Shown here piece after piece: positions 3,480 to 50,895 of a stretch of DNA of 64,000 bases (position 1 is the stretch's first letter; each line of letters starts with the position of its first letter). The translations under genes and the position numbers were made by a program. The stretch spans positions 1,984,001-2,048,000 of the forward strand of contig NW_027590117.1 in assembly GCF_964213995.1 (NCBI RefSeq). Direction: 5' to 3'. The notes beneath the pieces are model-generated. The model was not told where the DNA came from. It worked only from the letters and a program-made list of their open reading frames with translations, and ran no database searches. Source of the DNA: Mustelus asterias (taxonomy: Eukaryota).

Positions 3480-4215
3480 CTGCTGTGGAACTGCGATCTC
3501 TGCTGTGGAACTGTGATCTCTGCTGCGGAACTGTGATCCCTGCTGCGGAACTGTGATCCCTGCTGTGGAACTGTGATCCCTGCTGTGGAACTGTACTTTC
3601 TGCTGTGGAACTGTGATCTCTGCTGTGGAACTCTTTTCCCTGTTGTGGAAAAGTTCTCAGTGCTGTGGAACTGTGCTCTGCTGTGGAACTGTGAACTCTG
3701 CTGTGGAACTGTGCTCTCTGCTGTGGAACTGTGCTCCCTGCTGTGGAAATGTGCTCTCTGCTGTGGAACTGTGCTCTCCGCTGTGGAACTGTGATCTCTG
3801 CTGTGGATCTGTGATCTCTGCTGTGGATCTGTGATCTCTGCTCTGGATCTGTGATCTCTGCTGTGGAACTGTGATCTCTGCTGTGGAACTGTGCTCTCTG
3901 CTGTGGACCTGTGCTCTCTGCTGTGGAACTGCGTTCTCTGCTGTGGAACTGCGCTCCCTGCTGTGGAACTGCGCTCCCTGCTGTGGAACTGTGCTCTCTG
4001 CTGTGGAACTGTGCTCTCTGCTGTGGAACTGTGATATCTGCTGTGGTACTGTGATCCCTGCTGTGGAACTGTGATCTCCGCTGTGGAACTGTGATCTCCG
4101 CTGTGGAACTCATTTCCCTGTTGTGGAAAAATACTCTCTGCTGTGGAACTGTGCTCTCTGCTGTCAAACTGTGATCTCTGCTGTGGAACTGTGCTCTCTG
4201 CTGTGAAACTGTGCT
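3480..4215. repeat. 20-bp minisatellite (TGCTGTGGAACTGTGATCTC)n
   Basis: Visible tandem array of about 36 units; explains the repetitive ORFs 3190..4167 and 3467..4234. Confidence 0.97.
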
Positions 4216-6065: not shown

Positions 6066-6469
6066 TTGATGTCGGCAGGCACGTTAACAGGAGTTTTCAT
6101 GGAGGTGTTCAAAATCATGGACAGCTTTAATAGAGTAAATTGGCATAAATTGTTCCTGTTACATGAGGACACTGATTCATTACGATTTGTTAAAAAAGTA
6201 AAGAGATTGTGAGCAAACACATGTTTACTTACATCGGTAGCTAGTTTCTGTGAATCCTGAATACGCTGTCTAAAAACTGGGGAATCTGATGCAAAATTTT
6301 TTCAAAGAGCAGTTGGAGAAAAACCGTTTTAAAGGGCGAATTTTAGGGCATAAAGAGGAAATGGGACGGATTCGCTACGAAATCTCTGGCAGAGTTCCGA
6401 TGGGTTTAAATATAACCCCATATGCTGTATTATTCCATGAAATGGTGGGCAGCGTAACCCAAGATGCGC

Positions 6470-6752
6470 CGCGAGCGTGAATACGATATATATCATTCAG
6501 AATGATCCGCACTGCGCAGGCGTCGGGATGCTCCGCCCCGGAGGCCGCCTGTCTGCGCGTTGCAGCTCCCGGAAGCTGAGCGGAACTGTGCAGGCGGAAC
6601 TGTGCAGGCGCAACAGCGGAGAGTCTCAGCGGCTCTCAGAGCCCGAATCAGCGCCGCCGGGCTCGGCGGACGTGCGGCGAGGGAGCCGGGGGCGCGGCAC
6701 CATGAAGCGGATGGTGCAGCGAGGCCATCCTCACCGCCCCATATGGAATAGT
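6470..6752 (+). promoter_or_regulatory. CpG island with candidate first exon (ATG 6702, MKRMVQRGHPHRPIWNS)
   Basis: CpG-dense; NRF1-like TGCGCAGGCG, ETS CCGGAAG, GC box, Kozak-like GGCACCATG, possible donor GTGAGT at 6753. Confidence 0.5.
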
Positions 6753-6763
6753 GTGAGTGAGAG

Positions 6764-7349
6764 TGTGGTGAACCATCGTTGGTTCCCACTGGATAGTGCT
6801 GAGCCAGGGGCTGGCCAGTACTACAAGGATGTACATATGTTACTGTTGGGTTGTGCTATTGTTGCTGTTGGGGTTAGGGTGGGGTTGTTACACCTTTGTA
6901 CTGTCGTGTTGTGGCACATCCCAGTCGGGCTCCGCCTCCTGGTAGAGGTATAAGAGTCCCTGCTCTGGCCGGGACCCCTTCAGTCTGGGATAGTGTATAT
7001 AAGTTCTGGCAGCTTCGTTACAGTAAATAAAATTGATGCGCTACTCAAACACGAGGCCTGAAGCTCAGTAAATGAAAGGCTTTTATTTACTGTAACGAAG
7101 CTCCCAGAACTTATATACACTATCCCAGAATGAAGGGGTCCCGGCCAGAGCAGGGACTCTTATACCTCTCCCAGGAGGCGGAGCCCGACTGGGATGTGCC
7201 ACAACACTACAGTACAAAGGTGTAACAACCCCACCCTAACCCCAACAGCAACAATAGCACAACCCAACAGTAACATATGTACATCCTTGTAGTACTGGCC
7301 AGCCCCTGGCTCAGTACTATCCAGTGGGAACCAACGATGGTTCACCACA
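6764..7349. mobile_element. Palindromic LTR-derived insertion (269-bp inverted arms, 5-bp TSD GAGAG)
   Basis: Arms 6764-7032 and 7081-7349; TG...CA ends; TATA-like and AATAAA signals in each arm; GAGAG at 6759-6763 and 7350-7354. Confidence 0.85.
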
Positions 7350-7600
7350 GAGAGGAAACAGAGAGCAGTGGTTAATGGTTGTTTTTCAGACTGGAGGAAG
7401 GTTTCCAGTGGAGTTCCCCAGGGCTCGGTGTTAGGAGCCCTGCTCTTCCTGATATATATTAATGACACACACATTGGTGTACAGGACACAAGCTCAACAT
7501 TTCCACACGCCAGCAAACTTGGAGGCATTGGCAAGTGTGAGGAGGAAAGTGGGAAACTTCAAAAGGACACAGGCAGCTTGGTGGAATGGGAGACAAGTGG
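7350..7600 (+). mobile_element. CR1 RT fragment (target of the palindromic insertion)
   Basis: VNGCFSDWRKVSSGVPQGSVLGALLFLIYIND. Confidence 0.8.
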
Positions 7601-8599
7601 CAGTGGGGAAAGTTCCAGCACCGATTGCCCCGCGGCTGCCCCTGGGGAGCATGCCCACTCTCAGTGCCTGGGCAAGTCAGTGTGTTGGATAGAGCGCTTT
7701 CTGGGGCGCAGAGAATTATTTTTATTCATTCATGTGATGTGTGCGTCACTGGCTTGGCCAGCATTCATTGCACGAATTACCTTTGAACTGAGCGGCTTGT
7801 TAGGCCATTTCAGAGGGCATTTAAGAGTCAAACACATTGCTGTGTGTCTGGAGTCACATGTAGGCCAGAAGAGGTCATGTGGGCAGATTTGCTTGTCGAA
7901 AGGGACATCAGTGAATCAAGTGGGTTTTTACGACATGGCCATCATTAGACCTTTATTTCCAGATGTTTATTGAGCTCAAATGTCACTCTGTTGTGGTGAT
8001 ATTCAGGTCCCATTGCATTACTCCGGATCATGGTCCAGTGACAATACCACTCCACCATTAATTCCTCATGTGGAAATTAATGGCTGCTGCCATTCACAGA
8101 CATCAGTACGTGTTTTAATGCAAGCCAATTGTCAGAGAGCTGAAACATGAACTCTGTTTCTCTCTGACCTGTTGAGTCATTCCAGAATTTTCACTTTGTT
8201 TCAGATGTTCAGTGTCCACATGATTTTACCGGTGAAATATTGCAGCTGTTCAGAAAACTGAGGCCTGAAATAGACAAATGAAGAACCCTTTGGAATGAGG
8301 GTGGATGTTCTGTGAAGGTACGTTCTTGTTGCCTGGCTTTGAACTGGAGTGTTGATGGAGGAAAAGCTGATTGGTTTAACCTTGAGTACATTTGAGACCA
8401 GTCGAGGCCAAACATTTCTCATCAAAGTTTCCTGTACAGGAACAGAGACTGGCAGAGACATTGCACTCTCATATAGAATAAATAATCGACAGCAAATCAG
8501 TTCTGCACTCATAAGCAGTATCAAGCTTGAGTTACTTTCACACTGAAATACTGGAACAGAGCCTAACAGACAGTGAGTTAGTCCCACATTGACATCAAA

Positions 8600-9500: not shown

Positions 9501-10645
9501 AGCTGACAGTGACCCACTTCCATGCAGTAACAGAGACTGACAGACAGTGAGATAATTTCACACATTATTATTGATAGATAGGGAGTGAATTATACATTCA
9601 GATGCAGTAACAGAGATTGACACAACGGTAATTGCAAACATAAATCCAGTGGTGATTAAAGGATAGAGAATCAATTCCACACTAACATACAGTAACACAG
9701 CCAGAGTTAATTACACATTCAATTCTACTGAGCAAGAGTTAATGCTACATTCATACACAATAACCAAGACTGACCGTTAATTCCACTCTCACATGCTATA
9801 ACAGCGATGAACAGAGAGTTAATGGCCCACTCACATTCGGTAATAGTGAATAACAAATACAGATTTAATTCCATCCTCGCATTCACTAATCTAGATGAAC
9901 TGATGTAATTCCATACTGAAACACATGAACAGAGAATGGCTGACAGCGTTAATTCCACACTCTCACACAGTAATAGATTGAGAGAGTTAATTCCACACAC
10001 ACACAGTAATAGATTGAGAAAATGTTAATTCCACACTCATGCACAGTAATAGATTGAGAGAGAGTTAATTCCACATTCAGACACACTAATCGATTGAGAG
10101 AGAGTTAATTCCACACCCACACACAGCATTAGATAGAGAGAGAGTTATTCCATGTTCCCAGACAGTAATAGATTCAGAAAGAGTTAATTCCACACTGACA
10201 CTGAAATAGATTGAGAGAGAGCTAATTCCACACTCTCTCACTGTAATAGATTGAGAGAGAGTCAATTCCACACTCTCACAGGAATAGATTGAGAGTTACT
10301 TCCATGCTCTCACACAGCAACAGATTGAGAGGGAGTTAATTCCGCACTCTCTCACAGTAATAGATTGTGAGAGAGTGAATTCCACACTGACACAGTAATA
10401 GATTGAGAGTGAGTTAATTCAACGCTCACACAGTAATAGGTTGAGAGAGAGTTAATTCCACACTTTCACACAGTAATAAATTGAGAGAGTTAATTCCACA
10501 TGGACACAGTAATAGATAGACAGAGAGAGTTAATTCCATGCTGACACTGTAATAGATTGAGGGAGAGTTAATTCCCCACACACAGTAATAGATTGAGAGT
10601 TAATTTCACATTGGCACACAGTAATAGATTGGAGAGAGAGTTAAT

Positions 10646-12367
10646 ATAGGGCTAAAAGGGGTCACAAAAAATCATTGCCCAGCAGGATTAAGGAAAATAC
10701 CAAGGCTTTTTATACATATATAAAGAGCAAGAGGATAGCCAGGGAGAGGGTTGGCCCACTCAAGGACAAAGGAGGAAATCTATGCGTGGAGCCAGAGGAA
10801 ATGGGTGAGGTATTCAATTAGTTCATTGTGTCAGTATTCACCAAAGAGAAGGACTTGGTGGATAATGAATCTGGGAAAGGATGTGTTGATAGTTTGAGTA
10901 ATGTTGAAATCAAGTGTTGGGGTTCATGAGGAATATTAAGGTAGACAAGTCCCCAGGGCCTGAAGCGATATACCCCAAAATACTGGGAGAGGCAAGGGAG
11001 GAAATTGCTGGGGCCTTGAGAGAAATTTTTGTATCCTCACTGGCTACAGGATTTACTGCCACTTGGAAATTAGTGGATGTATTTGCGAGACGTAATATGG
11101 TTTTGTGAAGGGCTGGTCATGTCTCACTAACTTGATCGAGTTTTTCGAGGAAGTGACGAAGATGGTTGATGAGGGTAGGGCAGTGGATGTTGTCTACATG
11201 GACTTCAGTAAGGCCTTTGACAAGGTCCCTCATGGCAGAATGGTGCAGAAGGTGAAGTCACAAGGGATCAGAGGTGAGCTGGCAAGGTGGATACAGAACT
11301 GGCTTGGTAACAGAAGACAGAGGGTAGCAGTGGAAGGGTGCGATTCTGAATGGAGGACTGTGACATTTGGCGTTCCTCAGGGATCAGTGCTGGGACCTTT
11401 GCTGTTCGTAAAAGATGTGACTGATTTGGAGGAAAATGCAACTGGTTTGATTAGTTAGTTTGCGAACAACACAAAGGTTGGTGGATTTGCAGATAGCGAT
11501 GAGCACCATCAGAGGATACAGCAGGATATAGATAGGTTGGGGGCTTGGACGGAGAGATGGCAGATGGAGTTTAATCCGGACAACTGTGAGGTAATGCATT
11601 TTGGATGGTCTAATACAGATAGGAAATATACAGTCAATGGCAGAACCCTTAGGAGTATTGATAGGCAAAGGGATCTGGGTGTACAGGTACACAGGTCACT
11701 GAAAGTGGCAACGCAGGTGGAGAAAGTAGTCAAGAAGGCATACGGCATGCTTGCCTTCATCGGCCGGGGCATTGAGTTTAAAAATTGGCAAGTCATGTTG
11801 CAGCTTTATAGAATCTTAGTTAGGCTGCATTTGGAATATAGTGTTCAGTTCTGGTTGCCACACTACCAGAAGGATGTGGAGACTTTGGAGAGGGTACAGC
11901 AAAGACTTACCAAGATGTTGGCTGGTATGGAGGATATTAGCTGTGAGGAGAGGTTAGAGAAACTTGGTTTGTTCTCTCTGGAACGACAGAGGTTGAGCGG
12001 CGACCTGATGGAAGGCTACAAGATTATGAGGGGCATGGACAGAGTGGACAGTCGGAAGCTTTTTCCCCAGGGTGGAAGGGTCAATTACTGGGGGGCATCA
12101 GTTTAAGGTGCGAGGGGCAAGGTTTAAAGGAGATGTATGAGGCAAGTTTTTTGCACAGATGGTGGTGGGTGCCTGGAACTCACTGCCGGGGAAGGTGGTT
12201 GAAGCAGATACAATAGTGAGTTTTAAGGGGCGTCTGGACAAATACATGAATAGGATGGGAATAGTGGGATATGGTCCCTGGAAGGGTCGGGGGTTCAGTT
12301 GGGCAGCAAGGTCGGTGCAGGGCCGAAGGGCATGTTCCTGTGCTGTAATTTTCTTTGTTCTTTGTTC
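10646..12367 (+). mobile_element. 5'-truncated CR1 (HER1-like) LINE, frameshifted
   Basis: RT motifs YMDFSKAFDKVPH and GVPQGSVLGP; tail ttctttgttctttgttct; TTAAT on both sides. Confidence 0.92.
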
Positions 12368-13477
12368 TTAATTCCACACTGACACACAGCAATAGATCGA
12401 GGGAGAGTTAATTCCACATTCATGCATAGTAATAGATCAGAGAGAGAGTTATTTCCACACTCTCACACTGTAACAGATTGAGAGTTAATTCCACACACAC
12501 ACACAGATTAATAGGTTGAGAGTGCATTAATTCCATACTCACATACAGTAATAGATTGAGAGAGAGTTAATTCCACACTGGCACACAGCAATAGATTGAG
12601 AGAGAGTTAATTCCACACACACACAGTAATAGATTGAGAGAGAGTTAATTCCACATGGAGACACACACATAGATTGAGAGAGAGATAATTGCACATTCCC
12701 ACACAGTAATAGATTGAGAGAGATAATTCCACACACTCACACTGTAATATATTGCGAGAGAGTCAATTCCACATCCACACACAGGAATAGATTGAGAGTT
12801 AATTCCACGCTCACACACACAGTAATTGATTGAGAGAGTTTTAATTACACACTGACACTCACTAATGGATTGAGAGAGTTAATTCCTCACGAACACACAT
12901 TAATGGATTGAGAGAGAGTTCCTTGCACTGTCACACCATAATAGATTGAGACAGTTAATTGGACACTGACACACAGTAATAGATTGAGAGAGGGTTAATT
13001 CCACACTGATACACAGCAATAGATTGAGAGAGAGATAATTCCACATTCCCACACAGTAATAGATTGAGATGGAGTTAATTCCATTGCACTGTCACACTGT
13101 GATAGATTGAGACAGTTAATTGGACACTGACACACAGCAATAGATTGAGAGAGAGTTAATTCCAGGCTGTCATACAGTAATAGATTGAGAGAGAGTTAAG
13201 TCTACAAAGACACACTGTAATAGATTGAGAGTGTGTTAATTCCACACTCTCGCACAGCAATAGATTGAGAGAGCGTTAATTCCACAGTCTCACACTGTAA
13301 TAGATTGAGAGAGAGTTAATTCCATATTCACACACAGTAATTGAGAGATAGTTAATTGCACACTGACACACAGTAATAGATGGAGAGGGAATTAATTTTG
13401 CACTGACACACTAATAGATTGAGAGAGAGTTAATTCCACACTGGCACACAGTAATAGAGTGAGAGACCGTTAATCCG

Positions 13478-15317
13478 TTATAATATATAAAATGAAAAAG
13501 AGTGGCAAAAGTAAACATTGGTTCTTTAGAGGATGAGAAGGGGGATGTAATAACTGGAAATGAGAAAATGGCTGAGGCATTCAACAGGTATTTTGTGTCA
13601 GTCTTCACAGTGGAAGACACAAATAACATGCCAAAAATTAATGACAGGAAGGCTATGGCAGGTGAGAACCTAGAAACTATCATTATCACGAAAGAGGTAG
13701 TGTTGGGCAAGTTAATGGGGCTAAATGTAGACAAGTCTCCCGGTCCTGATGGAATGCATCCAAGGGTACTAAAAGAGATGGCGGGAGGAATAGCAAATGC
13801 ACTAGTGGTAATTTATCAAAATTCGCTGGACTCTGGGGTGGTTCTTGCGGATTGGAAAACAGCAAATGTGACGCCACTGTTTAAAAAAGGAGGTAGACAA
13901 AAGGCAGGTAACTATAGGCTGGTTAGCTTAACTTCTGTAGTAGGGAAAATGCTTAAATCTATCATCAAGGAAGAAATAGCGAGACATCTGGATATTAATT
14001 GTCCCATTGGTAAGACGCAGCATGGGTTCATAAGGGACAGGTCATGTTTGACTAATTTTTGGAATTCTTTGAGAACATTACATGTGCAGTGGACAATGGG
14101 GAACCTGTAGATGTGGTGTATGTGGATTTCCAGAAGGCATTTGACAAGGAGCCACACCAAAGACTGCTACATCAGATAAAGTTGCACAGTGTTATGGGTA
14201 ATGTATTAGCATGGATAGAGGACTGGTTAACTAACAGAAAGCAAAGAGTGGGGGTAAGTGGGTATTTTTCTGATTGGCGATCATTGACTAGTTGTGTGCC
14301 TCAGGGATCAATGTAGGGACCGCAATTGTTTACGAATTACATAGATGATTTGGAGTTGGGGACCAAGTGTAGTGTGTCAGAATTTGCAGATGACACTCAG
14401 ATGGGTGGAAGAACAAAGTGTGCAGAGGACGCTGAAAGTCTGCAAAGGGATATAGATAATCTAAGTGAGTGGGCGGGGGTCTGGCAGATGGAGTACAATG
14501 TTGGTAAATGTGAGGTCATCCATTTTGGTAGGAATAACAGCAAAATGGACTCTTATTTAAATGATTAAAAATTGCAACATGCTGCTGTGCAGAGGGACCT
14601 GGGTGTCCTTATGCAGGAATCTCAAGGAGTTGGTTTGCAGGTGCAGCAGTTAATTAAGAAGGCAAATGGAATTTTGTCCTTCATTGCGAGAGGGATGGAG
14701 TTCAAAAACAGCGAGGTTATGTTGCAGCTGTATAAGGTGCTGGTGAGGCCACACCTGGAGTACTGTGTACAGTTTTGGTCTCCTTACTTGAGAAAGGATA
14801 TACTGGCACTGGAGGGGGTGCAGAGAAAATTCAATAGGTTGATTCCAGAGTTGAGAGGGTTGGCTTATGAGGAGAGACTGAGTAGACTGGGGCTATACTC
14901 ATTGGAATTCAGAAGAATGAGGGGAGATCTTATAGAAACATATAAGATTATGAAGGGAATAGACAAGATAGAAGCAGGTAAGTTGTTTCCACTGGTGGGT
15001 GAAACTAGAACTAGGGGGCATAGCCTCAAAATAAGGGGGAAGCAGATTTAGGACTGAGGTGAGGAGGAACTTCTTCACACAAAGGGTTGTGAATCTGTGG
15101 AATTCCCTGCCCAGTGAAGCAGTTGAGGCTACCTCATTGAATGTTTTTAAGGCAAGGATAGATAAATTTTTGAACAGTAAAGGAATTAAGGGTTATGGTG
15201 AATGGGCAGGTAAGTGGAGCTGAGTCCACAAAAAGATCAGCCATGATCTTATTGACTGGCGGAGCAGCCTCGAGGGGCCAGATGGCCTATTCCGACTCCT
15301 AGTTCTTATGTTCTTCA
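13478..15317 (+). mobile_element. 5'-truncated CR1 LINE (second subfamily), disrupted
   Basis: KSPGPDGMHPRVLKE, DFQKAFDK, FADD; tail ttcttatgttc. Confidence 0.92.
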
Positions 15318-15686
15318 TCCCACACTCAGACACAATAAATGATTGTGAGAGAGTAAATTTCACACACACACACAGTAATAGATTGAGAGAGAATTAATTC
15401 CATACACACACAGTAATAGTTTGAGAGAGTGTTAATTCCATACACACACACAGTAATAGTTTGAGAGTGTTAATTCCATACACACACACAGTAAAGTTTG
15501 AGAGAGTGTTAATTCCGCACCAACACACAGTAATAGATTGAGAGGGAGTTAATTCCACACTGACGCACAGTAATATGTTGAGACAGAGAGGTAAATTCAT
15601 ACTGACATACAGTATTAGATTGAGAGAGAGATAATGCCACACTCTCACACAGTAATAGATTGCGAGAGAGTTAATTCCACACTCAT

Positions 15687-16690
15687 ACAAAGAAAATTAC
15701 AGCACAGGAACAGGCCCTTCGGCCCTCCAAGCCTGCACCGACCATGCTGTCTGACTCAACTAAAGCCCCCTACGCTTCCGGGGACCATATCCCTCTATTC
15801 CCATCTCATTCATGTACTTGTCAAGACGCACCTTAAAAATCACTACCGTATCCGCTTCCACTACCTCCCCCGGCAACGAGTTCCAGGCACCCACCACTCT
15901 CTGTGTAAAAAATCTGCCTCATACATCTCTTTTAAAACTTGCCCGTCGCACCTTAAACCTATGCCGCCTATTAATTGACTCTTCCACCCTGGGAAAAAGC
16001 TTCTGACTATCCACTCTGTCCATGCCTCTCATAATCTTGTAGACTTCTATCAGGTCTCCCCTCAACCTCCGCCACTCCAGTGAGAACAAACCAAGTTTCT
16101 CCAACCTCTCCTCATAGCTAATGCCCTCCATACCAGGCAACATCCTGGTAAATCTTTTCTGTACCCTCTCCAAAGCCTCCACATCCTTCTGGTAGTGTGG
16201 CGACCAGAATTGAACACTATATTCCAAGTGCAGCCTCAGTAAGGTTCTATAAAGCGCCAACATGACTTGCCAATTTTTAAACTCAATACCCCGGCTGATG
16301 AAGGTAAGCATGTCGTATGCCTTCTTGACTACCTTCTCCACCTGCATTGCCACTTTCAGTGACCCGTGTACCTGTACACCCAGGTCCCTTTGCCTATCAA
16401 TACTCTTAAGGGTTCTGCCATTTACTGTATATTTCCTAGCTGTATTAGACCTTCCAAAATGCACTGCCTCACATTTGTCCGGATTGAACTCCATCTGTCA
16501 TCTCTCTGCCCAAATCTCCAACTGATCAATATTCTGCTGTATGCTCTGATGGTCCTCATCGCTATCCGCAAATCCACCAACTTTTGTGTCGTCCGCAAAC
16601 TTACAAATCAATCCTGTTGCATTTTACTCCAAATCATTTCTATATATTACAAACAGCAAAGGTCCCAGCACTGATCCCTGAGGAACATCA
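15687..16690 (-). mobile_element. 5'-truncated CR1 LINE
   Basis: ORF 15919..16494 MEFNPDKCEAVHFG...LEYSVQFWSPH; same subfamily as 10646-12367. Confidence 0.92.
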
Positions 16691-18139
16691 CCACCCCAAG
16701 CAATAGATTGAGAGACTGTTAATCCCACAGTCACACACAATGAATGATTGAGAGAGAGTGAATTCCACACCGACACACAGTAATAGATTGAGAGGGAATT
16801 AATTCCACACTCTCACAAACTAATAGATTGAGAGAGTTAATTCAACACACACACACTGTAATAGATTGAGACAGGGAGCTAATTCCACACTGACATACAG
16901 TCATAGATTAAGAGGGAGATAATTCCACACACTCTCTGTTTTGGATTGCGAGAGAGATAATTCCACACTGAAACACGGTAATAGATTGAGAGAGTTAATT
17001 CCACATTCACACACACTAATAGATTGACAGTTAATTTCACATTCATACAAGTAATAGATTGAGAGACTTTTAATTCCACACTCGCACACAATAACAGATT
17101 GAGAGAGAGTGAATTCCACAGACACACAGTAATAGATTGAGAGAGTTAATTTCACACTCACACACAGTAATAGATTGAGAGAGAGTTAGTTCCAAACTCT
17201 CTCACAGTAATAGATTGTGAGCAACTTAATTCCACACTCTCACACAGTCATAGATTGAGAGGGAGTTAATTCCACACTGACATACAGTAATAGAGAGAGA
17301 GAGATAAATCGACACTCTCACACAAGAAAAGATTGAGAGAGATTGAATCCACACAGACACACAGTAATAGATTGAGAGAGAGTTAATTCCAAACTGACAC
17401 ATTAATAGATTGAGAGCCGAGTTAATTCCACACTCACATACTGTAATAGATTGAGAGAGATATAATTCCACACTGACACACAGTAATAGATTGGGAGAGA
17501 GATAATTCCACACACACAGTAATAGATTGAGAGTTAATTCCACACTGACATGCAGTAATATGTTGAGACAGAGGTAAATCCACATTGACAGACAGTAATA
17601 GATTGAGAGAGAGATAATTCCGTACTCTCACACAGTAATAGATTGAGAGAGTTCATTCCGAACTGACACAGTAATAGATTGAGAGTGAGTTAATTCCACA
17701 CTCACATACAGTAATAGATTGAGAGAGAGATAATTCCACACTCACATACAGTAATAGATTGAGAGAGAGTTAATTCCACACTCATACAGGTAATAGATTG
17801 AGGGACCGTTAATCCCACAGTCACACACATAAATAATTGAGAGGGAGTGAATTCCACTCCGATACATAGTAATAGATTGAGAGAGAGTTAATTCCACATT
17901 CATACAAGTAATAGATTGAGGGACCGTTAATTCCACACTCTCACACAATAAAAGATTGAGAGTTACTTCCACACTCTCACACAATGATCGATTGAGAATT
18001 AATTCCACACACTCTCACAGTAATAGATTGAGAGAGAGTTCATTCAACACTGACACACACGAATAGATTGAGACAGGGTTAATTCCGCACCCACACACAA
18101 TGATCGATTGAGAGAGAGTTAATTCCACACTCTCACTAT

Positions 18140-19620
18140 GAAGCTCAGTTAATCAACACATACATTTTCAACTGGGCCATTGTCACATTGTCTAATTTGG
18201 TAAAGCCAGAAGTACAGTACTTATTTACTATCTCTGCCATACCCTCTGCTGCAGTGAGCAGTTTACCCTGCTTGGCCCTTATGAACCCCACTCTATCCTT
18301 CACTAATCCTTTACAATTAATATGTTTGAAGAACATGTTATGATTTATATTAGCGCAGCCTGCTAACATTTCCTCATGCTTCCTCTTCATTATTCCAGCC
18401 TTAGCCCCTCTCCTGCATTTTGAGCTGTTTTTCCTGGTTTCTATTGCTATTATTATTCCAGCATGCATCATATGCCTCTTTTTTCTTCCTTATTTTCTCG
18501 TCAATAACCTTAGACATCCAGGATACCCTAGCTTTGGACACTGCATATGTGTGTCTGGTGGCTATGTACCTGGCTGGCATCCCATTCAACTCAACTTTGA
18601 AAGTCTCCCATTTGTCAACCACTGTTTTATCCTCGCAATTTGCCTCATTTGCCACATTTTGCCCTCACTTAATCTATCTGTTTCCTTTTGAAGCCTCCTC
18701 ACGTATACTTCACAATTAATTTCTTATCTATCTTTATGCTGTCAGCAAATTTAGCAACGGTACCTTCAGTCCCTTCATCCAAGCAATTTTTATAAATTGT
18801 AACAATTTGTAGCCCCAGCATGAATACACCACTCATCAGATCCTGCCACCCCGAAAAATAACCATTTGTGCGAACTCTTTTTGACCTGTTAGCGAGCCAA
18901 CCATCAATCCATGCCAAAATGTTACGCCCAAAACCATGAATGTTTATTTTACACAATAACCTTTAATCTGGCACTTTGGCAAATGTCTTCTGGAAATGTA
19001 AGTACAGGACATCCACCGGTTCCCCATTCACAGCACATGGGCCTCTTTCAAAAAACTCCAATAATTTAGTTAAACATGATTTCCTTTTCAGAAAACCATA
19101 TTGACTCTGCCTGATTGCCTTGTATTTTTTCCAAGTTGTAATATCTTTCAGAATGGCTTCTAACATTTTCCCGATGACAGCTGTTAGGCTAACAGCCTGT
19201 AGTTTCCTGCTTTCTGTCTCCATCCCTTTTTGAATCAAGGTATTACATTTGTCATATTTCAACCTGATGGAACATTCTCCAAAGCCAGGGAATTTTGCAA
19301 AATTAAAACAAATGCATCAACTGTCTCATTCGCCACTTCTTTCATGTCCTTCACGAGAAGTCCATCCGGACCCAGGAATTTGTCAGCCTGTCGACCCAAC
19401 AATTTGCTCAATACCACTTTCCCTGTTGATTGGAATTTTCCTGTGCTCCTCCCTTCCATTTGCTGGTTTACAGCTATTTCTGGGATGTTACTTGTATCCT
19501 CTATAGTGAACACCAATGAAAAATACATTTGCCAATACCCTGTTTTCCATTATCAATCCCCCAGTTGCACTTTCTATAGAACCAATGCTCACTCTGCTAA
19601 CTCTTTTCTTGTTCAACTAT
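18140..19620 (-). mobile_element. Old degenerate CR1 ORF2 fragments
   Basis: Fragmented minus ORFs with KSCLTKLLEFFE, AKFADS and FTIEDTSNIP motifs. Confidence 0.8.
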
Positions 19621-19767: not shown

Positions 19768-20084
19768 ATCGCTTCTCGGCCTTTTGGCTAAGATCAAGTG
19801 CAGTATGGATTGGATGCTGCACTTGGTTGAGGTCATTAGGTTACATTGAAGTTTCATATGAAGCAATTTTTAAAAGCGGCATCTCGGCCTTTTGGCTCAG
19901 ATGCACATGAGCTCAAGCCTTGGAGGAGGAACCTCCCCCTCCTCCATTCAGCTTGGCTCATGTAGATCGGGCCCAGGACAGGGTAATTTGGTCGCTTGCC
20001 CTGTCTTGTCAGCCTGGATCGGAAATGTCTCAACTTGTTGAGACTCTGAATTGAATTTGATTGAATTGGAAAAGTACAAAAAAA
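19768..20084 (+). mobile_element. U2-snRNA-headed, structured, A-tailed element (candidate SINEU-like retroposon)
   Basis: 19768-19806 is U2 nt 1-39 with one mismatch; second U2-like 5' hairpin at 19879-19905; several hairpins; A-tract abuts the H2A ATG. Confidence 0.65.
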
Positions 20085-20453
20085 ATGTCTGGAAGAGGAA
20101 AGAGCGGCGGGAAAGCTCGGGTCAAGGCCAAGCCTCGCTCCTCCCGGGCTGGACTGCAGTTCCCGGTGGGCCGTGTTCACAGGCTCCTGAGAAAGGGCAA
20201 CTATGCTGAGCGTGTGGGTGCCGGAGCCCCGGTCTATCTGGCTGCTGTGCTCGAGTATCTGACCGCTGAAATCCTGGAGCTGGCCGGGAACGCGGCCCGG
20301 GACAACAAGAAGACCCGCATCATCCCCAGACACCTGCAGCTGGCCGTCCGCAACGACGAGGAGCTCAACAAGCTGCTGGGAGGGGTGCTGCCTAATATCC
20401 AGGCCGTGCTGCTGCACAAGAAAAGCAGCGCTGGGGCCGCGAAGAGCAAGTGA
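20085..20453 (+). CDS. H2A: Histone H2A, aberrant (in-frame 7-aa deletion, promoter replaced); variant or pseudogene
   Basis: [35 protein letters not shown]...; [10 protein letters not shown] lacks TIAQGGV; 122 aa. Confidence 0.9.
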
Positions 20454-20483
20454 AGCGCCCATTCTTTAATCTGATAACCCAAA

Positions 20484-20499
20484 GGCTCTTTTCAGAGCC
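20484..20499 (+). terminator. Histone 3' stem-loop (H2A)
   Basis: AAA GGCTCT TTTC AGAGCC AC followed by purine-rich GAAAAAGGG. Confidence 0.95.
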
Positions 20500-21190
20500 A
20501 CTCACTTTATCTGAAAAAGGGCGACCTGGTGTCTATCGGTCAGTTTCTGCACTGCTATTCACAGCACAGCTGTTTCCCGCTTTGTTCTATCAATCCGTAC
20601 TATTGACACATACAGTATTTTAATGCAAGTTGCTGTTGTTTATCGGGGAAACCATCCCAGTGAACTGAATTGATCCTATTTCAAATATAATTGCTTTAAA
20701 ATGTGATAATCTGCGAGGATATTCATCTGCAGCCCATCGGTTTTCAAAGTCAGTCACTGGATCTGGAAAAGTGTTAATTATTGTCTATGCGAATGTGCAA
20801 GCGTTCCTGCAATGGCTATATCTGTGTGAGTGGGTTACTGTTGGAGACATGCTTCATATTCTGAACGTAATTGACACAATTTTCAACACTCTCGCTGCGA
20901 CTCGAAACACGTGCGGAGAAAGTGGATTTGCGGAATTATGGCTCGGAAACTGAAATGATCGCAGGTTTAGTAAAACTACTTTTAAAATTAAATTGTGGTA
21001 GAATTGTTAACGGCATCGTTTTTACTCGAACCATCAAAGGATTGGATATATGAGTGACCCCAATGCAACGGAGGGTTAATTGTAACATTGAGAGGTTTCA
21101 GTACTAGAGTCCTGGGAATATTCTGTCCTGGGAATTCAAACACTAGAATCGTTAACAGGAGATCGCAGCTCTTTCATTTGCCGATTTGGT

Positions 21191-21206
21191 GGCTCTTAAA
21201 AGAGCC
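21191..21206 (-). terminator. Histone 3' stem-loop (H3)
   Basis: GGCTCT TTTA AGAGCC ACC, downstream element AATGAAAGAGCTG. Confidence 0.95.
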
Positions 21207-21235
21207 GTTGTTGTTCTTGGTGCTGAGGTCGGGGT

Positions 21236-21769
<534 letters not shown>

Positions 21770-22948
21770 TCAAACTCTGACCAGCGAATTAATGTCTGTA
21801 CCTCAGGTTCTGATTGGTTCAGTTGTTTTCTTAACCGCCCCTTTCAGAAATTCCGCCGTTTTCTGTGCAGGAAATAACCGTTTGTATAAAATAAGTCTTC
21901 ATTCCGTCCTTAATAAGATAATTCCCAGAAACATTGAAGATTTGAAGTCTATCTCCCCCCACTTAGTGCTTTAGACCCTTTTCCCGCTCTCTGGGCTGTT
22001 CATTCCCAGAATCTCACGCTGTTCCACTCGATCCCTGTCCCTTTCCTTTCCAGCCCATTCAGATTTCCCCTCTCCTGTCGCTTGTAACATTCGCCGCCGT
22101 TTTCGGGGGAAAGGATCAGAAATCAGTCGCTTCTCTGTCTCCCTGAAGCCGGTGTGAAAGGGGTTGAGTCTGTTGTTTGTTACAGAGAGTGACTTCATAT
22201 TTGTCCCGTTTGACATTACTGAATAGAGTCGTTTGCTGCCCGTGGCGGACAAATGTTCACAAATGAAACCTCTTTGTAAAATAATCTTACAGCAGAATAT
22301 TAATTGAGAATCTATTTTTAATAAGTTAAGAATTTGTCTCAATTCCCTTTCCCGCGCTGAAATTGGCGGCATTTCCCCAATTCAAAATTTCTGCTGGTTG
22401 ACAGTTGAAGCCAATGATTGGCTCAATGTTCACATTCGGTGCTCTGCGATTGGTTCAGAGCTGCGAATGCGGAGAGGATGGCCAATCAGAAGCAGGCTGG
22501 GGTTGGAGCGGCTCAAACTGCGGGAATTGCGGGTTTGTGAATGACAGAGCGGAAACTGATCAGTTTCACAAAGCCTGTCAGTTTCAGTGCGGAAACAACC
22601 GTCTGGGGGCAAATAGCATCACAACTGGGACTGGTTCCAGTGAACGATTCACCGGCTGCTGCTACTAAACTCCGCTATTCCAGAGAAAGCTTTGATAAAC
22701 TCTATCCAAACACTGGGTGATTAAACAGGAGTGATGCGGCGTTTCACTGAGGGCACATGTCAACTGGGGGCTGCTCAGACAATCCACTTAAAAATTTCAA
22801 AAACAATCCGCATCGCTGCTCCAAATGAAATGTTAAATTCGGTGATTCCCGCACTGTAACCTAAACAAAACAAACATGCATCTCAAGTACTGAACAGCCT
22901 ATCCCAGCTCCGTCCCCAGGTCAATGCTCTCTCTGTGAAGCGGTTTTT

Positions 22949-22964
22949 GGCTCTGAAAAGAGCC
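22949..22964 (-). terminator. Histone 3' stem-loop (H4)
   Basis: AAA GGCTCT TTTC AGAGCC, then ACAGAGAGAG. Confidence 0.95.
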
Positions 22965-22998
22965 TTTGTTGTGTGTTCGGTAGGAAGGTTCCAGTTGT

Positions 22999-23319
<321 letters not shown>

Positions 23320-23926
23320 TCACTCAGATCTCTGCACAATATGGGAGAGGAACTCTTTCAGGCTCCTTTTATACAGCCCGCCCCGACCTGACTGAGAAAG
23401 GCGGAGTGAGAGCAGAGAGGGGAGGAGACAGAGTGAAGATCAAACACAGAGCGGGAGGGAGGAGAGAGCCGGACTGACACACACACACAGAACGGCCCGT
23501 GATCTTTCAGCTCCACCTCCAGTTTCTGCAACCGCCAATTTCAACCCGTTTATTAACAATGGAAGCGAAACACAGCTCCCCACACAAACCCTTCCAGAGC
23601 CGCCCTTCACACACAAGAGTTTCTACAAACCCGGAGCTTTGAAATATGGAATCAAAACAGAAAATGCTGCAACTAATTAGCAGCTCCGGCAGCTTTTGTG
23701 AAGAGAGAGAGAGACAGAGTTAACGTTTCGGATCGTGACTTTGTTCTTTTGTGTTTTTAAACCTGGTCCCGTAATAATTCCCAGTCAGTAATATTCCGAC
23801 CTAAACACAGTCGATTCTATAGCAAGAATCTTCCTCCGGAACATCCTCACACACATCTGCTTCTCGCTGTTTGCAAACACTTTATTGAAGCTGTTTGGGG
23901 CAATTTCCTGTGTTAGAATTAAGGGA

Positions 23927-24004
23927 GTCAGGATGGCCGAGCGGTTTAAGGCGCTGCGTTCAGGTCGCAGTCTCCTCTGGAGGCGTGGGTTCAAATGATT
24001 GACA
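23927..24004 (+). pseudogene. tRNA-Leu(CAG) pseudogene, damaged 3' end
   Basis: GTCAGGATGGCCGAGCGGTTTAAGGCGCTGCGTTCAGGTCGCAG...GGGTTCAAATGATTGACA; 3' strand of the T-stem is deleted. Confidence 0.85.
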
Positions 24005-24014
24005 TTGATTTTTG

Positions 24015-24290
24015 GCTAAGAATTGCCGTCTCAGAGCGCCAGGCACCTGGGTTCGATTCCCGGCTGAGGTCTCTGTCTGTGTGGAGTTTGCAGATTCTCC
24101 CCGGGCTTCCTCCGGGTGCTCCGGTTTCCTCCCGCACACCAAAGTGCCTGTCAGGTTGATTGGCCATGCTAAATTGCACCGGAGTCTCCGGTCAATAAAT
24201 AGGGTAATGGGGATCCGGACTGGGTGGGATTGAGGTCGGTTCAGACTCGATGGGACGATTGGCCTCCTTCTGCACTGCAGGGATTCGATT
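24015..24290 (+). mobile_element. HE1-type V-SINE
   Basis: B-box GGTTCGATTCC, V-domain, tail ggcctccttctgcactgcaggg. Other copies or fragments at about 31365-31480, 32100-32345(-), 44690-44960(-), 46540-46700, 46800-47100(-), 56490-56710, 59075-59220 and 61645-61835(-). Confidence 0.85.
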
Positions 24291-24327
24291 AAAAATTAGG
24301 CTGCAATGCGGTATTTAGCCACCAGTG

Positions 24328-27054
24328 TTACTGTCTCACACTATTATTAAGAGATAATATCAGGGTAGTACTGAGGGATGACATAGGCTCTGAGGAACAA
24401 AACGTGGAATCATTATGGGTAGAGATGAGGAATAGTAGAGGGAGAAAGACACTAGTAGGTGTGGTATATAGGCCCCCAAATAATAATGTTGAGGTAGGGA
24501 GGGCTATAAACAAGCAGATAAGGGATGCGTGTAAAAACGGAGCGGCAATAATCATGGGGGACTTCAACATGCACATTGACTGGCAGACTCAAGTTGGTAA
24601 GGGTGGAATGGAGGAAGAGTTCTTAGAATGCTGTCGGGATAGTTTCCTTGAACAGCATGTTACGGAACCGACGAGGGAACGAGCTATTTTGGATCTGGTA
24701 TTGTGTAACGAGGTAGGTAGAATTAAGGATGTTATTGTGAAGGACCCTCTTGGGTCTAGTGACCACAATATGGTCGAATTTCTGATTCAGATGGAAGAGG
24801 AGAAAGTTTGGTCCCAAACCAGTGTCCTCTGTTTGAACAGAGGGAGATATGATAGGATGAGGGATGAATTGGCTAAGGTAGACTGGGAGAGCAGGCTGGC
24901 AGGTAGGATAGCTGAGGAACAGTGGAGGATTTTTAAGGAGATCCTTTTCAGTTCTCAGCAAAAATATATTCCAGCAAAAAACAAGGATTGTAAGAAAAGG
25001 GAGAACCAGCCGTGGATAACGAAGGAAATAAAGGAGAGTATTAAAATAAAAACAGCTGCGTACAGAGTGGCCAAAAATAGTGGAGAAACAAGTGATTGGG
25101 AAAAATTTAAGAAACAACAAAGGGAGACTAAGAAAGCGATAAAGAAAGGAAGGATAGACTATGAAGCTAGGCTAGCAATTAATATAAAAAATGATAGTAA
25201 AAGTTTTTATAAATATGTAAAAAGGAATAGAGTGGCTAGAGTGAATGTTGGACCCTTGGAGGACGAGAGGGGGGAGTTAATAGTGGGAAATGAGGATATG
25301 GCTGAGTCTTTAAATACGTTTTTTGTGTCGGTCTTCACGGTGGAGGACACAAATAGTTTGCCAAATATTAACGATAGAGGGTTGGCAGCAGGAGAAATAC
25401 TTAATACAATTAATGTTACCAGAGAGGCAGTGCTGGGTAGACTAATGGGACTGAAGGTGGATAAGTCCCCGGGTCCGGATGGAATGCATCCCAGGGTATT
25501 GAAAGAAATGTCAGAGGTAATAGTGGATGCGTTAGTGATTATTTATCAAAACACGTTGCATTCTGGGGTAGTGCCGGTTGATTGGAAAACGGCTAATGTT
25601 ATGCCGCTGTTTAAAAAAGGAAGGAGACAAAAGGCGGGTAACTATAGGCCGGTCAGCTTAACATCTGTAGTAGGGAAAATGCTGGAATCCATTATTAAAG
25701 AGGAGATAGCAGGGCATCTGGATAGAAATGGCTCGATCAATCAGACGCAGCATGGATTCATGAGGGGAAAGTCGTGCTTGACGAACATGTTGGATTTTTA
25801 TGAAGATGTGACTAGGGCGGTTGATGGAGGAGAACCGGTGGATGCGGTGTTTTTGGATTTCCAAAAGGCGTTTGATAAGGTGCCCCATAAAAGGCTGCTG
25901 AAGAAGATTAGGGCACACGGAGTTGGGGGTAGTGTGTTAAAGTGGATTGGGGACTGGCTATCCGACTGGAAGCAAAGAGTCGGAATAAATGGGTGTTTTT
26001 CCGGTTGGAGGAAGGTAACTAGTGGCGTGCCGCAGGGATCGGTACTCGGGCCGCAACTGTTTACCATTTATATAGATGATCTGGAGGAGGGGACGGAGTG
26101 TAGGGTAACAAAGTTTGCAGACGACACAAAGATAAGTGGAAAAGTGAATCGTGTGGAGGACGGAGAAGATCTGCAGAGAGATTTGGACAGGCTGAGTGAG
26201 TGGGCGAGGATATGGCAAATGGAGTATAACGTTGAGAAATGCGAGGTTATACACTTTGGAGGAAATAATAACAAATGGGTTTATTATCTCAATGGAAACA
26301 AATTAAAACATGCTACCGTGCAAAGGGACCTGGGGGTCCTTGTGCATGAGACGCAAAAGCCCAGTCTGCAGGTACAACAGGTGATCAAGAAGGCAAATGG
26401 GATGTTGGCCTATATTGTGAAGGGGATAGAATATAAAAGCAGGGATGTCTTGATGCACCTGTACAGGGCATTGGTGAGGCCGCAGCTGGAATACTGTGTG
26501 CAGTATTGGTCCCCTTATATGAGGAAGGATATATTGGCATTGGAGGGAGTGCAGAGAAGGTTCACCAGGTTAATACCGGAGATGAGGGGTTTGGATTATG
26601 AGGAGAGGCTGAGGAGATTGGGTTTGTACTCGTTGGAGTTTAGAAGGATGAGGGGGGATCTTATGGAGACTTATAAGATAATGCGGGGGCTGGATAGGGT
26701 GGAGGCGGAGAGATTCTTTCCACTTAGTAAGGAAGATAAAACTAGAGGACACAGCCTCAAAATAAAGGGGGGTCGGTTTAAGACAGAGTTGAGGAGGAAC
26801 TTCTTCTCCCAGAAGGTGGTGAATCTCTGGAATTCTCTGCCCACTGAGGTGGTGGAGGCTACCTCGCTGAATATGTTTAAAGCGCGGATGGATGGATTCC
26901 TGATCGGTAAGGGAATTAAGGGTTATGGGGATCAGGCGGGTAAGTGGTACTGATCCACGTCAGATCAGCCATGATCTTATTGAATGGCGGGGCAGGCTCG
27001 AGGGGCTAGATGGCCTACTCCTGCTCCTATTTCTTATGTTCTTATGTTCTTATG
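24328..27054 (+). mobile_element. Young CR1 LINE, 5'-truncated in the APE domain, with uninterrupted ORF2 24404..26953 (849 aa)
   Basis: GDFN and SDH endonuclease motifs, DFQKAFDKVPH, GVPQGSVLGP, FADD; tail (TTCTTATG)3. Confidence 0.97.
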
Positions 27055-27240
27055 AATCTACCAGACATCTTTATTATGAGAGAAAGTGGCGATTGAACAA
27101 ATATGCAATTCAAATGAAATTCAGCTTCTGCTGTGTTTTGCTTTAGTCTGAATTTGAAATGATCTCTATTGAGAACGAGCCGGGCCGCGGGACAGGAATC
27201 ATTTTCTTGCGGGTTCAGCTCTTTCCTGAGAGATGTGGGT

Positions 27241-27256
27241 GGCTCTGAGAAGAGCC
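27241..27256 (-). terminator. Histone 3' stem-loop (H1)
   Basis: AAA GGCTCT TCTC AGAGCC ACCCA, downstream element GGAAAGAGCTG. Confidence 0.93.
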
Positions 27257-27292
27257 TTTGGGTTCAGAGGTTTACAATTTGCTCGGGTTGTT

Positions 27293-27943
27293 TCACTTCT
27301 TTCCTGACGCTTTCTTCGCTTTTGCTGCTTTCACTTTGGGTTTGGCCTTCGATTTAGTCACTTTTTTGACAGACTTTCCGCCCGTCACCTTCTTCACAGG
27401 AGACTTTTTCTTCAGGGCTGCTTTCTTCACCGCCTTTTTTGGAGTTGCCGCCTTCTTGCTGCTTGTTTTCTTCACTGTTGATTTCTTCACTGGAGTTTTC
27501 TTTGCTGCGGGTTTCTTGGCTGCTGCTTTCTTTGTTGTCACCTTCTTGGCCGCTGTTTTCTTTACTAAAGGTTTCTTGGCTGTTGGTTTCTTCGCCTTCT
27601 TTCCCATTTTCCCCGGGCTTTCCTTCTTAGCGAGTTTGAAGGAGCCGGAGGCGCCCTGTCCCTTTGTCTGCACCAGAGACCCTGTCTCCACCTTCCTCTT
27701 GATCGTTAACCTGATCTGGGAGACGCGCTTCCCCACATCCACTCCGCTGCCAGCCAAAGCTTTCTTTATCGCGGCCAGGGACATCCCCTTGCGATCGCTG
27801 CATTCCGCCACAACATTGAGGATCTGCTCGCCTAACTTGGGACCGGCTGCCGCAGGTCGGGGAGCCGCCTTCTTCTTCCTGGGAGACTTCACTTGAGCGG
27901 GAGCGGCTGGAGGAGCCGTTTCGGCGGCTGCAGTTTCAGTCAT
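27293..27943 (-). CDS. H1: Linker histone H1
   Basis: MTETAAAETAPP...globular domain (SLAAIKKAL...VQTKGQGASGSFKL) and K/A/P-rich tail with S/TPxK motifs, 216 aa; H1 box AAACACA at about 28088-28094. Confidence 0.95.
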   Translation of the reverse strand: MTETAAAETAPPAAPAQVKSPRKKKAAPRPAAAGPKLGEQILNVVAECSDRKGMSLAAIKKALAGSGVDVGKRVSQIRLTIKRKVETGSLVQTKGQGASGSFKLAKKESPGKMGKKAKKPTAKKPLVKKTAAKKVTTKKAAAKKPAAKKTPVKKSTVKKTSSKKAATPKKAVKKAALKKKSPVKKVTGGKSVKKVTKSKAKPKVKAAKAKKASGKK

Positions 27944-29139
27944 ATCCGAGAGTGTGTGGAAAATCTGTGTGAGAGTCAGAACTGGATCCGAAATGAACCC
28001 AGTGGTGGCGGCACAGAGCAACTTAAAGGCAGAGAGCGGACGGAGCAGAGACAAGCTGCTGTCAGCTCCCGGCTCCTCCAGCCTCTCTGTGTTTCTCTCT
28101 CCTCACAAACTCTCCCCTTGCAATGAAATTCCGCCTCTCCAGAGATCCAGCTCACATCCTTCATGTCTCTGACACACGAATGTTTGCTGTTGAAAAGGTT
28201 TCACTCGAACTGAGAACTCCATTTTCCACTGAAACCCGTTTTACTGCTGCACTGATCGCGCTCTCACACGCGATAGCTGACATGTTCTCAACTTTTCCAC
28301 TCAAATCTTCAATTTAGCGAACCATTTGCCTTGAAATCTAACTTTGGGGCTCAGCAGGGAGACTAAGGGAATCTTTGATTGGAAGATTATTTTATTTTAC
28401 ACAAGAGAGACTCGGAGATCTCATGATCAGAACAGACACACAAACACAGTTGGATTCGTCTGAACCGCCCGCTCCTTTCATACACTCTCTCTTACACAAT
28501 ATTCACATCTACACATTCACAGGACAAAACTTTCACCAACTGTAAGGTCCCAGGACGGAATTTCCCCTCCTTCCGGCCTTTGCTCCGGATTCCAGGGGGT
28601 TAGTTAGTTTTTCACCTCAGTAACTGTTAAACACTCTGAAGCCCGCTCCCCACAGATTGTCTTTGAATTCATTCATGGAATGTGGGCGTCGCTGTCTGGG
28701 TCAGCATTTATTGCCCATCCCTAATTGCCCTTGGGAAGGTGGTGATGAGCTGCCTTCTGGAACCGCTGCAGTCCATGTGGTGTAGGACCATATCTGTTCA
28801 CCAGATTCAGCGGCCAGAGCCAATCATATCTGTCCCCCCCCCCCAGTTATTACAGTGATTGCTGACATCACTGTGTTTGTTTACGATGAAATACAAATTA
28901 TCTGCTCTTGGAGTCTCTCGATTTCCTGTTTTATTTGTTTCTCCTGCACTGACAGGTAACAATAAATCACAACCTCAACACCCAGTGACAGCCAGTTAAA
29001 TAATAATCCCCCACTCGCTGATAATGGAGTTTCTAAAAGCGACACACAGTTTCTGACCATCCTCCGATTGGGCCTGGAGGGAACCAGATTCATTGTCAGA
29101 GCTGGACTTTCTTACTGAGGGAGTGGCACAGTCAGGTGA

Positions 29140-39508: not shown

Positions 39509-40717
39509 AGGAGAATATCACAGCTGTACTCCGGGAGGTCACCTCAGAGGGCTCATACAGCGAGGCAATATGGGTAGAGCTCAGGAATAGGAAAGGTGTA
39601 GTCATAATGTTGGGGGTTTACTATTGGCCACCCAACGCCAGCGGGAGATAGAGGAACAGATATGTTGGCAGATTTTGGCAAGGTATAAAAGTAACAGGGT
39701 TGTTGTGGTGGGAGATTTTAACTTCCCCTATATTGATTGGGACTCACTTAATGCTAGGGGCGTGGATGGGGCAGAGTTTGTGAGGAGCATCCAGGAGGGC
39801 TTCTTGAAACAATATGTAGATAGTCCAACTAGGGAAGGGGCCATACTGGACCTGGTATTGAGGAATGAGCCAAGCCAGGTGGTCGATGTTTCAGTCGGGG
39901 AGCAGTTCGGGAACAGTGACCACAATCCAGTAAGCTTTAAGGTACTGGTGGATAAAGATAAGTGTAGTCCTCAAGTTAAGGTGCTAAATTGGGGGAAGAC
40001 TAATTACAACAATATTAGGCAGGAACAGAAGAATGTAGATTGGGGGAAGATGTTTGAGGGCAAATCAACATCTGGCATGTGGGAGGCTTTCAAATGTAAG
40101 TTGATAGGGATTCAGGACCAGCACATTCCTGTAAGGATGAAGGATAAGTATGGCAAGTTTTGGGAACCTTGGATAACGAGAGATATTGTGAGCCGAGTCA
40201 AAGAGAAAAAGGAAGCATTTGTCAAAGCTAGGAGGCCGGGAACACACGAAGCAAGTGTAGAATACAAGGAAAGTAGAAAGAAACTTAAGCAAGGAGTAAG
40301 GAGGGCTAAAAGGGGTCACGAAAAAGCATTGGCCAGCAGGATTAAGGAAAATCCCAAGGCTTTTTATACATATGTCAAGAGCAAGAGGGTAGCCAGGGAG
40401 AGGGTGGGCCCACTCAAGGACAAGGGAGGGAATCTATGCATGGAACCAGAGCAAATGGGTGAGATATTAAATGAGTACTTTGCATCAGTATTCACCAAAG
40501 ATAAGGACTTGGTGGGTGATGAGTCTGGGAAAGGATGTGTAGATAGTTTGAGCCATGTTGATATCAAAAAGGAGGAGGTATTGAGGTTCTTGAGAAACAT
40601 TAAGGTAGACAAGTCCCTAGGGCCTGATGGGGTATACCCCAAAATACAGAGAGAGGCAAGGGAGGAAATTGCTGGGGACTTGAGGGAAACCTTTGTATCC
40701 TCACTGGCAACAGGGGA

Positions 40718-50348: not shown

Positions 50349-50421
50349 TAGCAGAGAATGGTTTTGATCCATCGACCTCTGAGCTATGGGCCCAGCACGC
50401 TTCAACTGCCCCACTTCTGCT
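50349..50421 (-). pseudogene. tRNA-iMet pseudogene
   Basis: Initiator sequence with several substitutions and a 1-nt insertion; A-box damaged. Confidence 0.85.
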
Positions 50422-50439
50422 ACGTCAAGTCCAGCTTCA

Positions 50440-50895
50440 CCTACCCCACCCCACCGCCTCCGCCCCTCCCCCCTGCTCCCCCTCACTCCTCCCCCTCCCT
50501 CCTCCCCTCCCCCCTCCTCCCCCTCCCCGTCCCCCCTCCTCCCCTTCCCCCTCCCCCTCACCCTCCCCTGTCCCCCTCCCCCCGCTCCCCCTCACTTCTC
50601 GCCCTCCCTCCTCCCCCTCCCTCCTCCCCCTCCTCCCCCTCCCTCCCTCCTTCCCTCCCCCTCCCCTCCCCTCCCTGTCCCCCTCCCCTCCCCCTCCCTG
50701 TCCCCCTCCCCCTCCCTGTCCCCCTCCCCCTCCCCCTCCCTCTCCCTCTCCCCCTCCCCCTCCCTCTCCCTCTCCCCCTCCCCCTCCCCCTCCCTCTCCC
50801 CCTTCCTCTTCCCCTTCCCCCCTCCCCGTCCCCTTCCCCCTCCTCCCTCCCCCCTTTCCGCCTCCCCCTCCCTCTCCCCCTCCCTCTCCTCCCCA
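50440..50895. repeat. Polypyrimidine/polypurine tract, (CCCCCT)n-like
   Basis: About 450 nt of almost only C/T on the + strand. Confidence 0.97.

Follow-up and report, generated by a model that had tools for sequence, protein, structure and literature searches.

DIRS-type elements carry inverted terminal repeats, leave no target-site duplication (TSD) and use a tyrosine recombinase. Integrase leaves TSDs of 4–6 bp and integrase-free insertions mostly lack them, in the account given in PMC11042837. Among LTR retrotransposons, the CsRn1 clade of Gypsy, marked by a tRNA-Trp PBS and a CHCC Gag, is described in PMC3601003 as having the 5′ motif TGTGGYG and LTRs of about 330 bp and as occurring in metazoans excluding vertebrates, and all the CsRn1-like elements treated in PMC2582038 have 4-bp TSDs. 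For Ginger1, PMC2836005 gives TIRs of 40–270 bp and 4-bp TSDs of CCGG or CCGT, and proposes that the TIRs arose from two opposite LTRs. For Ginger2/Tdd, the same source gives TIRs of 50–180 bp and a 4-bp TSD within RTATAY, with 5 bp only in TDD-4/5.

Three further systems bear comparison. Autointegration links an LTR end, inverted, to the element’s own DNA; for some elements, inversion products of this kind are described as frequent, in the form of dead-end extrachromosomal circles (PMC7197481, in its account of SISYPHUS and of the Ty1 work it cites). The guppy element PrERV-1, a fish LTR element in the form of a full provirus, is described with two LTRs in opposite orientation, the whole 5′ LTR being inverted (PMC5210030). 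Mu killer of maize (PMC3440606) is described as a duplication, partial and inverted, of a DNA transposon's end beside host sequence, and silencing was shown for that plant system. Our literature search, of main texts largely outside the subscription journals, found no description of an inverted solo-LTR pair within one TSD and no natural example of the LTR-to-TIR step.

Within the 64-kb stretch of DNA analysed here (the window), a repeat finder and a script located a 586-bp palindrome at 6764–7349 (Table 1), of which the window holds one copy and no second. Its two 269-nt arms are ungapped and 98% complementary, with exactly five mismatches (6798/7315, 6905/7208, 6943/7170, 6983/7130 and 7010/7103), and they enclose a spacer of 48 nt (7033–7080). 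In 30 letter shuffles of 6400–7700, the longest inverted alignment was 40 columns; the computed RNA fold of the palindrome, a measure of folding potential, was −562 kcal/mol (z −54). No Rfam family overlapped the element. A first-pass annotation of this DNA had read the palindrome as an LTR-like unit of about 316 bp on the minus strand with its first 269 bp repeated inverted at about five mismatches, and both outer ends as U3 ends; the lengths, the motifs and the unit’s 5′ end at both outer ends all agree with that reading. It had missed the single extra base 7033 between the unit’s CA end and the inverted copy, which may be untemplated, the first base past the LTR end or a later change.

Table 1 Coordinates of the palindromic element, its parts and its flanks in the window
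Feature	Positions	Strand	Basis
CpG island adjoining the left end; possible read-through promoter	6300..6800	.	CpG observed/expected 0.9–1.3, against 0.45 for the window
Target-site duplication GAGAG, left copy	6759..6763	+	Script; single copy in empty site
Left arm, inverted copy of unit 1–269, from natural 5′ (U3) end to just past AATAAA	6764..7032	+	Repeat finder, script
Extra base at central junction	7033	.	Script
Complete 316-bp LTR-like unit, TG...CA, many-copy family	7034..7349	-	Motifs; colinear contigs in X1, X4 and X6; 3′ end in X5
Unit 270–316, U5-like, GT-rich after polyA signal; single copy, palindrome loop	7034..7080	-	Script, contig alignment
Small hairpin with AATAAA (7082–7087), truncation point 269/270 at its tip	7066..7092	-	Folding
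Right arm, unit 1–269, with TATA-like boxes 7160–7164 and 7111–7117	7081..7349	-	Repeat finder, motif scan
Target-site duplication GAGAG, right copy	7350..7354	+	Script
Old CR1-type LINE ORF2 fragment, element inserted at its left edge	7350..7589	+	86% to P0001

Read on the minus strand from 7349 to 7034, the complete unit is 316 nt long and runs from TGTGGTG to GCGCATCA. Like an LTR, it has TG...CA ends and, in order, a TATA-like box, AATAAA and a GT-rich stretch, with TATA-like boxes at unit positions 186 and 233–239 (TATAA at 186 and 235) and AATAAA at 263. It is flanked by a 5-bp TSD, within the 4–6 bp of LTR elements, and it is a dispersed many-copy repeat by contig counts and depth in runs X1 and X4. 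The model of LTR anatomy in PMC3601003 fits the unit, which is most likely the LTR of a retroelement, possibly of Gypsy, BEL or ERV type, an identity that rests on anatomy and flanks. The small hairpin around AATAAA folded at −5.7 kcal/mol (z −2.1), and 7 of 200 shuffles folded equally well. Exact-pattern scans of viral, metagenome and genome contigs found no longer locus and no case of the unit as direct LTRs around a PBS, gag-pol and PPT; their sole match, 21–22 bases in a bacterium, was rejected as a chance match. No RNA run was among the listed runs that hold element words. With a frame across the unit’s end and the palindrome centre as bait, two protein searches were empty, and the eight matches of a third were rejected as repeat proteins with 34–47% identity over short stretches.

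Words of the element were present in 23 listed runs from 13 studies, with at least half of the words in four runs and a fraction of 0.75 in the best. Four of the 23 runs were aligned (X1 and X4 from organism A, X5 from organism B and X6 from organism C), using all contigs and setting small-share rows aside, to a target of 6150–7095, that is, one arm and the spacer. The contigs aligned numbered 1,823 in X1, 2,671 in X4, 39 in X5 and 1 in X6. Summed depth in X4 was 4e5–1.4e6 on the arm and 135–505 on 6150–6629, a roughly thousandfold ratio that is not a copy number; because such arm depth comes only from many copies, the unit belongs to a many-copy family.

At least four contigs in X1 and at least four in X4 leave the arm at 7032 and run into the unit’s own position 270 and onward. 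Contig 25 of X6 joins 7032 to 7080 on opposite strands, and an X1 joint (7017–7095) does likewise, which is the colinear form of the family; no other strand-changing joint was among those listed. Two loose ends in X5 show the unit’s 3′ end abutting unrelated repeats at two other loci, which fixes that end at 7034; we take one of these repeats to be CR1-like and the other SINE-like. Since the contigs are colinear and the 3′ end is fixed, the usual form of the family is the plain TG...CA unit and not a TIR element. These joints concern the 26 pieces listed, with 4,522 further pieces and 132 further loose ends outside the listing; a contig sharing the palindromic centre would align as a plain short match and could sit among those outside.

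Over the unit’s 3′ third (6950–7095), summed depth was several-fold under that of the 5′ part, more strongly so in X1 than in X4, and the loose ends there show diverged 3′ versions. Subfamilies with a common U3 and different downstream parts are likely.

The chance of a 5-base match between the flanks is about 1 in 1,000. The left flank was translated for a protein search in which one of nine candidates was found to span the site in frame and without the element. This protein, P0001, is a prediction on an ENA contig of 986 bases from an unrelated assembly and matches 6621–6761 and 7347–7589. Identity to 7347–7589 was 86%, compared with at most 49% over the same stretch for the other CR1 copies of the window. 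The left and right frames join on one glutamate codon, 591 bases (586 + 5) apart. Because P0001 reads across in frame, the empty site holds one GAGAG and no flank has been lost, this evidence being at the level of residues. The 5-bp GAGAG duplication proposed earlier is thus borne out. The accompanying proposal, that excision restores a CR1 sequence, holds in so far as the TSD is in register with CR1 ORF2 in the five window CR1 copies shown, but the CR1 likeness extends only about six bases left of the TSD, where the CpG island follows. The in-frame empty site rules out a pair of independent, oppositely oriented insertions between which the DNA was lost.

Set against the described systems, the unit matches CsRn1 in its 5′ motif and LTR length, but its 5-bp TSD, against 4 bp, excludes membership. 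The palindrome has TGTNR ends and TIR length in common with Ginger1, and fails as a member because GAGAG is 5 bp long against the 4 bp of CCGG/CCGT; Ginger2/Tdd fails on the 269-bp arms and the purine-rich target. Unlike Ginger1 and Ginger2, the locus has no transposase and one copy, and its arm usually occurs not as a TIR but as one half of a direct unit. A DIRS-type identity fails because a true TSD is present. The likeness to a solo LTR (Gypsy/Metaviridae-like, in the terms of PMC3601003) extends to the 316-bp TG...CA unit, the TATA-like boxes, AATAAA, the GT-rich 3′ part, an integrase-type TSD and many copies, but here an inverted 269-bp copy is fused to the 3′ end inside the TSD and both outer ends are U3. 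Where autointegration gives circles, the palindrome is inserted in the chromosome, has a TSD and carries an extra base at its joint; where PrERV-1 is a full provirus, the palindrome lacks an internal region and has one truncated arm. The likeness to Mu killer, including a possible read-through hairpin RNA, here concerns a vertebrate LTR with a 269-bp stem.

The palindrome has four breakpoints: the unit start on the left, unit position 269, the unit end plus one base, and the unit start on the right. Three of the four lie on natural unit ends, and the fourth lies at the tip of the AATAAA hairpin. The full unit is joined at its exact 3′ end (plus one base) to its inverted first 269 bases, all inside one 5-bp TSD. 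Because integrase defines these ends and holds them together, we infer a cDNA or integration intermediate with two U3 ends. On balance we favour a one-time accident in the insertion of an ordinary LTR retrotransposon, by way of a cDNA that had gained two U3 ends at or about the time of integration, and consider this the probable origin, if with clear reservations. The aberrant integrase product suggested in the first-pass annotation is likewise the best reading here.

In such an insertion, the element DNA would acquire two U3 ends at or just before integration. The U5 end could have met an LTR that had broken or stalled at the polyA hairpin, and either been joined to it or copied it after folding back; two cDNA ends could have been used and their far ends fused; or, with integrase keeping the two LTR ends together, a repair polymerase could have switched from one to the other, routes that the data do not separate. 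Both TG ends would then have served integrase, with the TSD as the result. If the element body was at first attached to the full arm, recombination between LTRs would later have reduced it to a solo LTR. The extra base 7033 makes a clean strand-transfer joint at the centre less favoured, and a fold-back would find no microhomology in the final bases of the unit. The palindrome encodes nothing and is probably inert; only read-through would make a 269-bp dsRNA of it. Taken as a single event, the palindrome would be a clean fossil of a rare error, in which both integrated ends are U3 and the TSD and empty site are proven, and the proposed bridge from LTR retrotransposon to TIR transposon could then form and fix in one step and not through two chance neighbouring insertions.

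Differences between the arms bear on when the inverted copy arose. The left arm alone departs from the family at 6905 and 6943, where the other letter makes up more than 99% of depth in X1 and X4, and the right arm alone departs at 7130 and 7103, the matching left positions not being listed as variable at the 5% level. Position 6798 is variable in the family (the right arm’s letter accounts for 75–82%), and both arms carry a minority letter at 6810 (20–30% of depth). The arms are 1.9% apart and agree at every family-variable site except 6798; no site is listed at which both carry a letter absent from the family. These family letters come from other organisms, and X4 differs from the window flank in all depth at 13 of the 17 listed sites; X1 and X4 cannot confirm the locus, because organism A is not the window’s individual. 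That none of four to five private changes is shared dates the duplication to more than about one-third of the insertion’s age (95%). This timing, read from the letters of the two arms, is compatible with formation at insertion, as a weak argument and not as proof.

Alternatively, a solo LTR was inserted first, and a later template switch during replication or repair copied 269 bases, reversed, into its left junction. This would account for the TSD and the full unit without odd integrase chemistry, a 2-base TG match is present at the switch, and the window has another fold-back, a templated inverted duplication whose arms measure 139 nt and in which a 27-nt piece was copied again. Both switch points, however, would have to fall on LTR termini with single-base precision, where microhomology amounts to 2 bases on the way out and none on the way back, and no listed private change is common to both arms; we regard such a later duplication as unlikely, though it deserves to be kept in view.

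That other fold-back lies at 39207–39519; its arms differ by three mismatches and it has no TSD. Its right arm continues into host DNA, through the 3′ tail of a CR1 and older CR1 sequence, and its 35-nt spacer contains, between two GAAA, an exact re-copy of the left arm’s last 27 bases; the structure looks like a templated inverted duplication. Fold-back events are not rare in this genome, since a second and plainly template-switched one occurs in the same window.

The palindrome could also belong to a recurrent, LTR-derived fold-back (MITE-like) family that is copied as a unit by the parent’s integrase or by a Ginger-like transposase, a reading we consider improbable. TGTNR ends are common to Gypsy and Ginger, 269 nt falls within the Ginger1 TIR range of 40–270 bp, and Bao et al. 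proposed in PMC2836005 that TIRs were built from two opposite LTRs. The fall in depth toward the unit’s 3′ part in X1 and X4 fits extra 5′ parts, and diverged subfamilies explain it equally well. On the other side, the window holds a single copy, every listed contig that departs from the arm at 7032 proceeds in plain form, and none of the 26 listed pieces (with 4,522 more outside the listing) bridges the centre in palindromic order; the TSDs of Ginger1 are the 4-bp CCGG/CCGT and those of animal Ginger2 are 4 bp and AT-rich. The MITE-like family proposed in the first-pass annotation found no support, with no second palindromic copy in the window or in the listed contigs, the latter being no reliable test. 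It is similarly doubtful that the palindrome founds or belongs to a TIR-bounded fold-back family which the parent integrase can re-insert, with read-through from the CpG island giving a Mu-killer-like hairpin against a very abundant LTR family in a vertebrate. If it did, it would be a natural example of the LTR-to-TIR step from which Ginger1 is proposed to have arisen. One copy makes no family, and the element would matter far more if it were recurrent or transcribed.

Nesting of LTR elements is common according to PMC6911290, and if another LTR had entered the first in reverse at position 269 and the remaining 3′ piece of the first had then been deleted, the full unit’s exact 3′ end would come to lie at the centre. 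Such a nested origin is very improbable: there is no inner TSD and no remnant of 270–316 on the right, the deletion would have to stop exactly at the outer TSD, and the arms are too close, at only 1.9% apart and in agreement at all family-variable sites but 6798. Least credible of all is an assembly or library fold-back artefact, for although the independent contigs listed span neither the left junction (6763/6764) nor the centre (7032/7033), and the best run contains 0.75 of the words, uncovered junctions in a contig alignment are no evidence of absence, whereas the flanks show no inversion and together restore a true empty site, a read fold-back would make no TSD, and the two arms depart from the family at different positions, as had been argued before, which disfavours a read fold-back because both arms changed independently.

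Left of the element, X4 summed depth at 6630–6757 is about ten times that of the rest of the flank, X1 depth rises there too, and a joint skips 6594–6708 in both X1 and X4. This stretch may represent a repeated piece, or else an exon whose end is the donor-like GTGAGT at 6753–6758, 11 bases left of the element; as a guess, a first coding exon would run from the ATG at 6702 to that donor-like site. The ATG is not kept in P0001. The Pfam scan covered 224 of 340 frames (116 repeat-block frames were left out, and one repeat frame was swapped for CR1 ORF2), and no downstream exons were found among the 224.

Farther to the right lies a histone cluster at 20061–28102, with H2A at 20061–20450 (+), H3 at 21239–21769 (-), an H4-like gene at 23002–23319 (-) and H1 at 27296–28102 (-); three of the four genes have 3′ stem-loops, and no H2B was found among the scanned frames of the window. 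Inside the cluster is a CR1-type ORF2 frame (24293–26953) that stays open over 886 residues and includes endonuclease and reverse transcriptase domains. Seven tRNA genes (three Met, two Gly-TCC and two Ser) lie within 3112–63232, and a Gly–Ser pair that occurs twice (29527/29929 and 62756/63151) with a spacing of about 400 bases hints at a repeated unit. A 20-bp minisatellite lies at 3480–4210, many blocks of a 40-bp repeat are interspersed with CR1 pieces at 9900–18200, and a C-rich repeat of 13 bp lies at 50400–50950. The repeats of the region resemble what we take to be those of a shark or ray.
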